From: an uncultured Clostridia bacterium
GTDB taxonomy: Bacteria > Bacillota > Clostridia > TANB77 > CAG-508
Direction of reading: 5' to 3'
DNA length: 32,000 nucleotides
Assembly (NCBI GenBank): GCA_934101145.1
Contig: CAKOPZ010000002.1
Span: forward strand, 1 to 32,000
A program made the translations under genes and the position numbers. Under the pieces are notes generated by a model. The model was not told the origin of the DNA. It saw nothing but the letters and a program-made list of their open reading frames with translations, and searched no databases. Shown piece by piece: positions 3,768-4,960 of this stretch. Each line of letters starts with the position of its first letter. Position 1 is the stretch's first letter.

Positions 3768-4664
3768 TTGGAGGATTCTTTACTTACAAATTCTCAAAAT
3801 ATTTCACAAGTAATATTAGATACAATAAATCAAATATTTAGTAATTTATTTTCTTCCATAGATAATAGTATGTATGGGAATTTAGATAATTTAGCATTTA
3901 TAAATACTGATATTTTACATGATTCTTTCTTTGAAAAAATATTTGGTACAAGTTCTACAAATGGCCTACTTCTTATTGCAAATTCTCTTTTGATTGCATT
4001 TGTTTTATATTATTGTTTTAAACTATTATATTCAAATTTTGTATCAACTCAAATAGAAAGTCCATCACAATTTATTTTTAAATTAATTATTTTTGGAATT
4101 GTCATTAATTGTTCTTATTATGTTTGTGAAAAAATAATTTATATTAATTATTTAATTTCAGGCTCTATTTGTGCAATTGGTAAAAATATTTTTGGACAAA
4201 CAGTATCATTTTCAAACTTTATATCAAATCTAAATTCAGTAATAGAAATAGAGCAAAATACATTTAATCTATTTTCTTTTGATGGACTTTTAAAAAGTTT
4301 CACATCTATTTCAATGCTTAACTTACTATTTTCATATGCCCTCAGATATATTATGATTAAAGTATTTGTTTTATTAACACCATTTGCATTTCTAACACTC
4401 TTAAATAACTCTACTTCTTGGTTCTTTAAAACCTGGCTTCGCACATTAATTTCATTATTACTTCTTCAATCATTTATATCAATCATTTTATTAATTGTTT
4501 TTACAATTAATTTTAATTCTACAGATATATTTTCTAAGCTACTAAGTATTGGTTCTATTTATGCTTTAACAAAAGCTAATTCGTATATTCAGCATTTGCT
4601 TGGTGGTATTTCAACAGATATTTCTGCTAATATAAGTTTAATGAAAAGTATGATTACAAAGTGA
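3768..4664 (+). CDS. VirB6/TrbL-like polytopic membrane protein
   Basis: TTG start 6 nt after AAGGAGG (3755-3761). About 6 hydrophobic segments and the operon position fit VirB6/TrbL. The call rests on topology and context only. Confidence 0.45.
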   Translation: MEDSLLTNSQNISQVILDTINQIFSNLFSSIDNSMYGNLDNLAFINTDILHDSFFEKIFGTSSTNGLLLIANSLLIAFVLYYCFKLLYSNFVSTQIESPSQFIFKLIIFGIVINCSYYVCEKIIYINYLISGSICAIGKNIFGQTVSFSNFISNLNSVIEIEQNTFNLFSFDGLLKSFTSISMLNLLFSYALRYIMIKVFVLLTPFAFLTLLNNSTSWFFKTWLRTLISLLLLQSFISIILLIVFTINFNSTDIFSKLLSIGSIYALTKANSYIQHLLGGISTDISANISLMKSMITK

Positions 4665-4672
4665 GGTGAACT

Positions 4673-4960
4673 ATTATAAAATTTATTTTTCCACAAAATT
4701 ATTGTTTTAAGCAAAAACTATTTGGTTTTATTGACTATTCAACTTTATTTTTTAATATTATTTTAGGTGTATTAATTTATTTACTTTTATCATGTTTTAT
4801 TAAAAACATCACTTTTAAAATTTCAATATTTATTATTTTATTTTTTCCATCTTTAATATTTAGTATAATAGGATTTAATCATGAAAAAATAACATATATT
4901 TTAAAATATTTATTTATATATATTAAATCTCCCAAATATTATTTATACAAAAAGTATTAA
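4673..4960 (+). CDS. VirB3/PrgI-like small membrane protein, unannotated, apparent ATT start
   Basis: A 95-codon open frame (4670-4960) with no ATG, GTG, TTG or CTG anywhere in frame. AGGTGA (4664-4669) is followed 3 nt later by ATT at 4673. Translation: IIKFIFPQNYCFKQKLFGFIDYSTLFFNIILGVLIYLLLSCFIKNITFKISIFIILFFPSLIFSIIGFNHEKITYILKYLFIYIKSPKYYLYKKY. The P-x-N/D...K-x-K-L-F-G-F motif, two TM helices and a basic tail resemble the PrgI (PF12666) / VirB3 layout. Confidence 0.55.
   Translation: MIKFIFPQNYCFKQKLFGFIDYSTLFFNIILGVLIYLLLSCFIKNITFKISIFIILFFPSLIFSIIGFNHEKITYILKYLFIYIKSPKYYLYKKY

Follow-up and report, generated by a model that had tools for sequence, protein, structure and literature searches.

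The 32,000-nucleotide stretch of DNA analysed here (the window) comes from an uncultured Clostridia bacterium (positions 1 to 32,000 of contig CAKOPZ010000002.1, assembly GCA_934101145.1) and covers a very AT-rich replication-origin region with a composition of 25% GC. Between dnaD and a gene for a VirB6/PrgH-like membrane protein, it carries an open reading frame (ORF) that lacks a standard start codon and that appears to encode a small membrane subunit of a type IV secretion system (T4SS). The frame (position modulo 3 equal to 2) runs through GTG at 4661, AGG, and a TGA at 4667-4669, and is then open from 4670 to a TAA at 4958-4960. Counting from 4670, ATT 4673 or ATA 4676, it comprises 96, 95 or 94 sense codons, respectively. 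The original prediction, made from the sequence of the window alone, had described a hidden VirB3/PrgI-like ORF of 95 codons at 4661-4960 with no canonical start. As it proposed, neither the translation nor the ORF listing, which is empty at this place, holds any ATG, GTG or TTG in frame between 4670 and the TAA. Its count of 95 codons holds for a start at ATT 4673, and its left boundary takes in GTG 4661, which a TGA closes after two codons.

A standard start could be restored to this frame if translation began at GTG 4661 and TGA 4667 were read as a sense codon, either under genetic code 4 or 25 or by readthrough. GTG 4661 is in frame, and the genome is AT-rich like those of organisms that use these codes. 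However, the 25 window genes that were tallied contain no in-frame TGA in 8,527 codons, and two of them end with TGA. Likewise, gyrA, gyrB, dnaA, mnmG and other housekeeping genes are uninterrupted under translation table 11, and an alternative code in which TGA specifies tryptophan or glycine was rejected on this ground. The genome uses the standard bacterial code, in which TGA is a stop. Furthermore, no Shine-Dalgarno (SD) sequence precedes GTG 4661, and orthologous proteins, which begin with MKFIFPQNY, have no counterpart to the residues M-R-W-T-I that such a start would add. This reading is therefore very improbable. Fusion of the frame to the VirB6-like gene by frameshifting was also rejected, because the upstream frame closes with the TGA at 4662 and the frame of the small ORF opens at 4670.

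A protein search with the predicted product returned 421 homologous clusters of approximately 94 amino acids that share 60-98% identity with it over 98-100% of the query, none of which carries a Pfam annotation. A profile search of 1.84 billion representatives recovered 173 family members (50% clustering), and a scan of one genome per species identified 300 genomes that encode a relative. The initiating methionine of the homologues sits over ATA 4676. At 81 related loci, for which the original prediction had suggested a check for ATG at this position, the start codon is ATG in 73 cases, TTG in 5 and ATA in 3, with an SD located 5-10 nt upstream in each. The three ATA cases are the window itself and two contigs of a single sister lineage, and a DNA-pattern scan revealed two further contigs of this lineage with ATA, for a total of four. 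ATA 4676, which had been put forward together with ATT 4673 as a candidate start, accordingly lies exactly over the ATG or TTG of the orthologues. Synteny around the small gene is also conserved in other species, and the frame, whose conservation had been named beside profile similarity as the deciding question, is very strongly conserved. The outcome that would have refuted the original prediction, with neither model similarity nor a conserved frame, therefore did not occur.

As judged by this conservation, the small ORF is a genuine protein-coding gene that is hidden by its absent canonical start. A chance open frame, or an error of sequencing or assembly that converted ATG to ATA, could in principle produce the same appearance, given that AT-rich DNA can hold long hydrophobic frames and that the finding rested on one read-through of one sequence. 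With 421 homologous clusters aligned over their full length, an identical ATA junction in 12 independent metagenome assemblies, and ATA in the four sister contigs, such an origin is scarcely credible.

The 12 assemblies stem from loci of the same species, which were gathered by exact matches to the DnaD and VirB6-like proteins of the window. This yielded 17 loci, which reduce to 12 distinct contigs and come from different metagenomes. All 12 carry the junction AAAGTGAGGTGAACTATT-ATA-AAATTT (GAGGTGA-ACTATT-ATA) without change, and the 94-codon frame is intact in each. No gene has been called in any of them in the 396-nt gap between the 298-amino-acid gene and dnaD, as anticipated in the original prediction for ORF callers that rely on ATG, GTG and TTG. 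The sister lineage, which shares 87-91% nucleotide identity with the window, has the junction ...TGAGGTGA-TTATT-ATA, which is one base shorter. Neither a stop codon nor an indel was found in any ATA copy of the small gene among the 12 conspecific contigs and the sister lineage. Judging from these contigs, the ATA allele is shown to be fixed in the species.

The pattern of substitutions reveals whether these ATA alleles have been maintained. Specifically, the conspecific ATA haplotypes differ at seven codons, six synonymously and one by a conservative K/R replacement (binomial P=2.5e-4; 52 synonymous versus 227 non-synonymous sites). The window differs from the sister lineage by 16 synonymous and 12 non-synonymous changes (P=6e-6), corresponding to a ratio of non-synonymous to synonymous substitution rates (dN/dS) of 0.14-0.16 at a dS of ~0.4. 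When changes are polarised with an outgroup, the window branch carries 10 synonymous and 3 non-synonymous changes. The neighbouring genes fall in the same range, with dN/dS values of 0.075 (VirB6-like), 0.15-0.18 (pilin-like), 0.20 and 0.04 (the two halves of a virD4-like gene) and 0.03 (dnaD). Insofar as substitution counts can reveal it, these data show that ATA-bearing alleles are under purifying selection.

Alternatively, the change from ATG to ATA might have silenced the gene, leaving a pseudogene in a decaying T4SS remnant that has not yet accumulated stop codons. The frame does lack a canonical start, G-to-A changes are favoured at 25% GC, and the virD4-like gene at the head of the operon is split by two frame changes. 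However, ATA has remained fixed across the 12 conspecific contigs and a sister lineage at a dS of ~0.4 with zero stops or indels, the SD is conserved, and the selection on ATA haplotypes described above (six synonymous changes to one non-synonymous, and dN/dS of 0.14-0.16) is not that of a silenced gene. The remaining genes of the operon, including both halves of virD4, are likewise constrained (dN/dS 0.04-0.20), and the lesions in virD4 resemble recoding sites rather than random indels, as discussed below. A pseudogene is consequently an unlikely explanation, and we conclude from these comparisons that the small gene is most probably translated without a canonical start.

The region ahead of the frame carries a strong SD. 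The upstream 298-codon gene ends with ACA AAG TGA, and the SD that the original prediction had seen overlapping this stop is real, takes the fuller form GAGGTGA with two bases in common with the stop codon at 4662-4664, and is kept in the sister lineage. In quality it matches the SDs ahead of neighbouring genes. ATT and ATA, which are the sole near-cognate candidates closely following it, lie 3 and 6 nt, respectively, downstream of GAGGTGA. Measured from the GAGG core, the distance is 6 nt for ATT 4673, which is the spacing of most neighbouring genes, and 9 nt for ATA 4676. The initiation region is predicted to be unstructured (minimum free energy -5 kcal/mol, z +1.27), with no RNA structure around the start beyond the level of shuffled sequences. 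ATA 4676 and ATT 4673 are not separable as the initiation codon by sequence alone, and the position of the start in orthologues makes ATA 4676 the most likely one.

In E. coli, AUA and AUU initiate translation at ~1-2% of the level of AUG (range 0.02-3%), AUC and CUG likewise at ~1-2%, and natural non-canonical starts have been confirmed there solely for infC and pcnB, which use AUU (10.1101/063800). Thus, a low output of the small gene is to be expected unless coupling to upstream translation boosts it. The window gene shares with infC and pcnB a near-cognate codon behind a good SD in a conserved, selected gene: no AUG, GUG or UUG is in frame, and the near-cognate codon occupies the start position of the orthologues with the SD at a working distance. 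Unlike the E. coli cases, its codon is probably AUA, for which no confirmed natural E. coli example is listed (10.1101/063800), no infC-like autoregulation is evident, and its use is predicted here from sequence.

These features suggest how expression might be sustained. An ancestral ATG would have changed to ATA in the source species, and translation of the gene would continue from a near-cognate codon, ATA 4676 or its neighbour ATT 4673, with the help of the strong SD. The overlap of this SD with the VirB6-like stop codon may also allow ribosomes that finish the VirB6-like gene to be handed on by translational coupling. The output of the small protein would probably be low. From this arrangement we infer which codon is used for initiation, how much coupling contributes and how strongly the gene is expressed.

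A stricter version would have ribosomes end at the VirB6-like stop codon, or at the end of the GTG-AGG-TGA mini-ORF (4661-4669), and restart at ATT or ATA, such that the small gene depends entirely on upstream translation without any SD-directed 30S initiation. GTG 4661 does overlap the TGA at 4662-4664 in a classic GTGA arrangement and is closed by the TGA at 4667-4669. Stop and start are separated by 11 nt in the window, which would permit coupling, and by 10 nt in the sister lineage, and no promoter-like site stands out upstream of the small gene. However, the SD fully suffices for initiation of the ordinary kind, and spacers of 2-20 nt are common among orthologues that start with ATG. A short spacer was rejected as a speciality of ATA alleles for this latter reason. 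Strict re-initiation is a variant of SD-directed near-cognate initiation and not an exclusive alternative to it, and we consider it rather unlikely to be the sole route.

The protein has the layout described in the original prediction. Its N-terminal region carries the motif FPQNY...KLFGF, and hydropathy peaks at residues ~22-42 and 47-68 are followed by a basic tail with six K/R residues versus one D/E. An AlphaFold2 (AF2) model with a mean predicted local distance difference test score (pLDDT) of 75 places helices at residues 21-41, 45-84 and 86-91, consistent with two transmembrane (TM) helices and a C-terminal helix. VirB3 proteins are small, with two TM helices, a C-terminal helix and short cytoplasmic ends (PMC12857230), and the window protein conforms to this VirB3/PrgI architecture, including its usual length of ~90-120 amino acids. 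As for context, the small gene lies directly 3' of the VirB6/PrgH-like gene inside the T4SS operon.

More distant members of the family provide a sequence connection to PrgI. Of 45 such members, 17 match nearly the whole of the PrgI model PF12666 in colinear fashion, although their scores of 13-20 bits are below the gathering score of 27 bits. Every family other than PF12666 is matched by at most 3 of the 45. The VirB3 model PF05101, for example, is matched by two, with a best E-value of 0.008. Among 25 close homologues of the window protein, two match PF12666 (E>=0.085). P0331, a bridge protein, scores 25.0 bits against PF12666 (cut-off 27) and 39.9 bits against a profile of the close family of the window protein; for a second bridge protein, P0370, the values are 25.5 and 27.6 bits.

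A second connection comes from NF045975, a model of 894 positions for the VirB4 protein of mycoplasma integrative and conjugative elements (ICEs; VirB4_plasma). When compared with this model, 24 of 65 family members match positions ~3-112 (best E=6.9e-5, 20.7 bits). These fragment scores are far below the whole-model cut-off, as expected for partial matches, and the window protein itself does not match. The TraC_N-like and VirB4-like proteins of the window match the successive segments 102-292 and 268-893 of the same model. Taken with the matches of its family members, the small gene would thus join these two in tiling a single fused protein of VirB3-VirB4 type, as Rosetta-stone evidence that the small protein is a membrane-anchor partner of VirB4. 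A VirB3-like role in anchoring VirB4 to the membrane may be inferred from this correspondence.

The PrgI/VirB3 label gains its support transitively, through the PF12666 matches of distant members, NF045975 and gene order; the direct model searches given below do not bear it out for the window protein itself. Indirectly, the evidence supports a protein that would be VirB3/PrgI-like in function, as a remote relative rather than a demonstrated member of PF12666.

The small gene is embedded in a larger set of T4SS-like genes whose coordinates are given in Table 1. On the + strand, the order is virD4-like, pilin-like, VirB6-like, small gene, dnaD and a dnaC-like gene. On the - strand, between gyrB and gyrA, are genes for the TraC_N-like protein, the VirB4-like ATPase, a ParA/MinD-like protein with an N-terminal extension and a 243-amino-acid protein. 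The T4SS-like genes at 1695-4960 (+) and 9707-14717 (-) flank gyrA and adjoin gyrB, dnaN and dnaA. In addition to these housekeeping genes, recF (like dnaN) is found on the - strand of the origin region, and rnpA, yidC, jag, mnmE, mnmG, rsmG, parA and parB are on the + strand of the window. No relaxase or integrase gene was found in the window. By its gene content, the locus is a minimal monoderm-type T4SS gene set among oriC-proximal housekeeping genes, with synteny conserved in other species.

Table 1. Coordinates of the small gene, its initiation region and other features of the window
Feature	Position	Strand	Basis or remark
Hidden coding sequence for a 94-amino-acid membrane protein (putatively VirB3/PrgI-like)	4676-4960	+	From start-homologous ATA to TAA stop; end-to-end alignment with homologues of ~94 amino acids
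ATA, homologous to start codon of orthologues; most likely initiation codon	4676-4678	+	Census; conspecific and sister contigs
ATT, alternative near-cognate initiation codon, one codon 5' of ATA	4673-4675	+	ATT-ATA kept in window and sister lineage
SD GAGGTGA, overlapping upstream TGA stop (4662-4664)	4663-4669	+	Sequence; kept in sister lineage
virD4-like coupling-protein gene, first of operon	1695-3379	+	Needs two +1 shifts, at CGG 2706-2708 and CGG 2746-2748
T4SS pilin-like (VirB2-like) gene, 120 amino acids	3390-3752	+	PF18895 T4SS_pilin E=3.5e-4, below cut-off; conserved synteny
VirB6/PrgH-like polytopic membrane protein, 298 amino acids; translational-coupling candidate	3768-4664	+	Weak TrbL/VirB6 match E=0.15; conserved synteny; dN/dS 0.075
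Promoter-like site TTGTAA-17-TATAAT with TG, ahead of dnaD	5000-5028	+	Consensus match only; marks 3' boundary of T4SS operon
gyrA	7161-9602	-	
VirB4-like ATPase, 618 amino acids; presumed partner of small protein	11790-13646	-	NF045971 E=8e-89; NF045975 268-893
TraC_N-like protein, VirB4 N-terminal domain equivalent, 201 amino acids	14112-14717	-	NF045975 102-292, NF045971 1-156; orthologue with PF26593 TraC-like
gyrB	15358-17271	-	
dnaA	20133-21494	-	

Together, these data support the original prediction in what it observed and in how it read it. They make it probable that 4676-4960 encodes the VirB3/PrgI-equivalent inner-membrane subunit of a chromosomal, oriC-proximal, monoderm-type T4SS-like apparatus, and that its translation persists from a near-cognate start, ATA or ATT. 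The apparatus would comprise the virD4-like, pilin-like, VirB6-like and small gene products from the + strand, along with the TraC_N, VirB4 ATPase and ParA-like proteins encoded between gyrB and gyrA on the - strand.

Several observations weigh against this explanation. First, searches of Pfam and NCBIfam with the window protein gave no match at E<=1, and this includes the hidden Markov models PF12666 (PrgI) and PF05101 (VirB3); the original prediction had nominated PF12666 and VirB3 models for a check. An hhalign comparison of family alignments (A4 or A7) with an alignment of the pCF10 PrgI clade gave a probability of 0.3%, although these profiles are narrow and limit the sensitivity. Searches of the Protein Data Bank with sequence profiles and with Foldseek, using the AF2 model, returned nothing meaningful, the best matches being an opioid receptor, a GPI mannosyltransferase and a flavivirus prM/E chain. 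Second, most virB3 and prgI genes adjoin virB4 (PMC12857230), and the small gene does not. The VirB4 ATPase is encoded ~7 kb away on the - strand, beyond dnaD, dnaC and gyrA, in an arrangement that is the same in orthologous loci.

Third, in the sister lineage the one-base-shorter junction brings a GTG inside the SD into frame three codons upstream, and a gene is called there (MIIIKF...). This canonical start could explain part of the selection signal between window and sister lineage. Fourth, one conspecific contig (L001, 1x coverage) carries a small gene that is 98.9% identical from 4673 onward and starts with TTG behind AAGGAGG (AAGGAGG-TTAATT-TTG), which means that canonical-start alleles circulate in the species. 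Comparison of L001:1-60 with window 4622-4680 reveals that an unrelated VirB6-like 3' end (...SFIKGG-stop) precedes the small gene, such that L001 is apparently a recombinant allele with its breakpoint exactly at the start codon. The changes on the polarised window branch are mostly common to this TTG-bearing contig, which makes that test less specific. Finally, the first gene of the operon is frameshifted, and this on its face suggests decay.

The frame changes in the virD4-like gene have an unusual form. The gene is split into ORFs of 339 and 229 codons, whereas intact homologues have 569 and 576 amino acids. Its two frame changes are 40 nt apart, at ATC TCA C/GGT CTT (2706-2708) and TCA TCT C/GGA AAG (2746-2748), where the slash marks the shift, and both have the form TCN-CGG. 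Skipping C2706 and C2746 would yield ...CPSIS-G-LNFPGFENILSS-G-KIVVLNL... in a 560-amino-acid product that aligns without gaps to intact homologues, with the predicted trans-frame peptide ...TFCPSISGLNFPGFENILSSGK.... This product scores 36.8 bits against TrwB_AAD_bind, versus ~20 for each half. All 12 conspecific contigs and the sister lineage share both shift sites, and the more distant L092 has site 2 as well. The wobble base of the serine codon at the shift sites differs among lineages (TCT or TCA). At 75 of 78 related loci the gene is in frame.

Selection also appears to follow the shifted frame. In the 39-nt middle segment, all three differences between window and sister lineage are synonymous in the double-shift frame and non-synonymous in the frame of the downstream ORF, and both halves are under purifying selection, as noted above. 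Moreover, CGG occurs only once in the 8,527 codons of the 25 window genes, namely at site 1, compared with 245 occurrences of AGA. Related loci contain 14 CGG codons in 161,825. In glass-sponge mitochondria, which offer the nearest precedent found, +1 frameshifting takes place at extremely rare CGG_(A)/UGG_(A) codons, with the inserted base 5' of GGA (PMC5009743). A literature search found no bacterial equivalent of CGG-linked +1 frameshifting.

The virD4-like sites have the appearance of programmed +1 shift sites at a codon that is hungry or unassigned, and for this reason we argue that the operon is recoded rather than decaying. Translational recoding may even be a general feature of the locus. 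A bolder proposal, which we advance tentatively and with more doubt than confidence, is that three fixed non-standard decoding events underlie expression of the T4SS operon, namely AUA initiation and two +1 frameshifts at UCN-CGG. An unassigned "hungry" CGG would be exploited or tolerated as a shift site, and the secretion system would be kept at very low levels, possibly in a manner responsive to tRNA or arginine.

Near-cognate initiation and VirB3-like subunits are both of already known kinds. PrgI of Enterococcus faecalis plasmid pCF10 (PF12666), the VirB3 equivalent of monoderm MPF_FATA T4SSs, is similarly small (117 amino acids versus 94) and likewise has two TM helices followed by a charged helix at its C-terminus, and prgI directly follows the VirB6-like gene prgH (PMC12857230). 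Unlike PrgI, the window protein does not match PF12666 and aligns to the PrgI clade with less than 1% probability in hhalign. Its gene also differs from prgI in lying ~7 kb from virB4 on the opposite strand, in its chromosomal locus that adjoins oriC without a relaxase gene in the window, and in its ATA start. The mycoplasma ICE VirB4 proteins (NF045975, Mbov_0397 family) would be of VirB3-VirB4 fusion type, with successive segments matched by members of the small-protein family, TraC_N and the VirB4 ATPase; in the window, in contrast, each of the three parts has its own gene, and these genes are divided between two loci.

The T4SS of Patescibacteria, or candidate phyla radiation (CPR), is homologous to monoderm conjugation machinery and has been kept in reduced genomes, often near the replication origin (PMC12102498). 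It resembles the window locus in its minimal set of VirB4, PrgI/VirB3, VirB6 and a T4SS_pilin-type VirB2-like protein (PMC12102498). The differences are that the locus described here belongs to low-GC gut Clostridia metagenome-assembled genomes (MAGs) of 1.5-1.7 Mb, includes a virD4-like gene, and is interleaved with gyrB and gyrA. The related loci are from MAGs of uncultured gut Clostridia whose hosts are human, rabbit, chicken, goat and mouse, and two relatives have complete chromosomes (1.5-1.7 Mb).

If these assignments are correct, then an essential-type T4SS subunit is systematically absent from the annotation of the source species, in that it is not called in any conspecific contig examined. 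Automated detection would score the T4SS as incomplete because the gene is uncalled. The locus also offers a clean comparative case of a fixed natural AUA/AUU start under purifying selection, which is rarely documented in bacteria, and could help to train gene finders for genomes that are very rich in AT. Beyond this, the small protein represents an undescribed family (421 or more protein clusters, with occurrence in 300 species-level genomes) without its own Pfam or NCBIfam model. The family would connect monoderm PrgI, the N-terminus of mycoplasma ICE VirB4 and the oriC-proximal chromosomal T4SS of reduced gut Clostridia.

A few further observations concern the surroundings of the operon. 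An Rfam scan of the region and of the whole window detected three tRNAs at 771-1055 and nothing else, and no terminator-like site was found at the 3' boundary of the T4SS operon. The division of VirB4 into two genes also occurs in relatives, for instance as proteins of 181 and 605 amino acids whose genes are 32 nt apart (L004). The corresponding gap in the window between TraC_N and VirB4 (13647-14111, 465 nt) is extremely AT-rich and holds no convincing hidden ORF. In one family representative of 401 amino acids, P0265, the small protein continues in frame from a VirB6-like part (...HKINVIEVIMYKFIFPFNY...), as either a natural VirB6-VirB3 fusion or the result of a lost stop codon. Lastly, some contigs of the same species (L096, L097 and L100-L102) carry an additional ORF of 106 codons between the dnaC-like gene and gyrA (~4518-4838, - strand), which is missing from the window (7045-7160) and from other strains and is therefore a strain-variable insertion.

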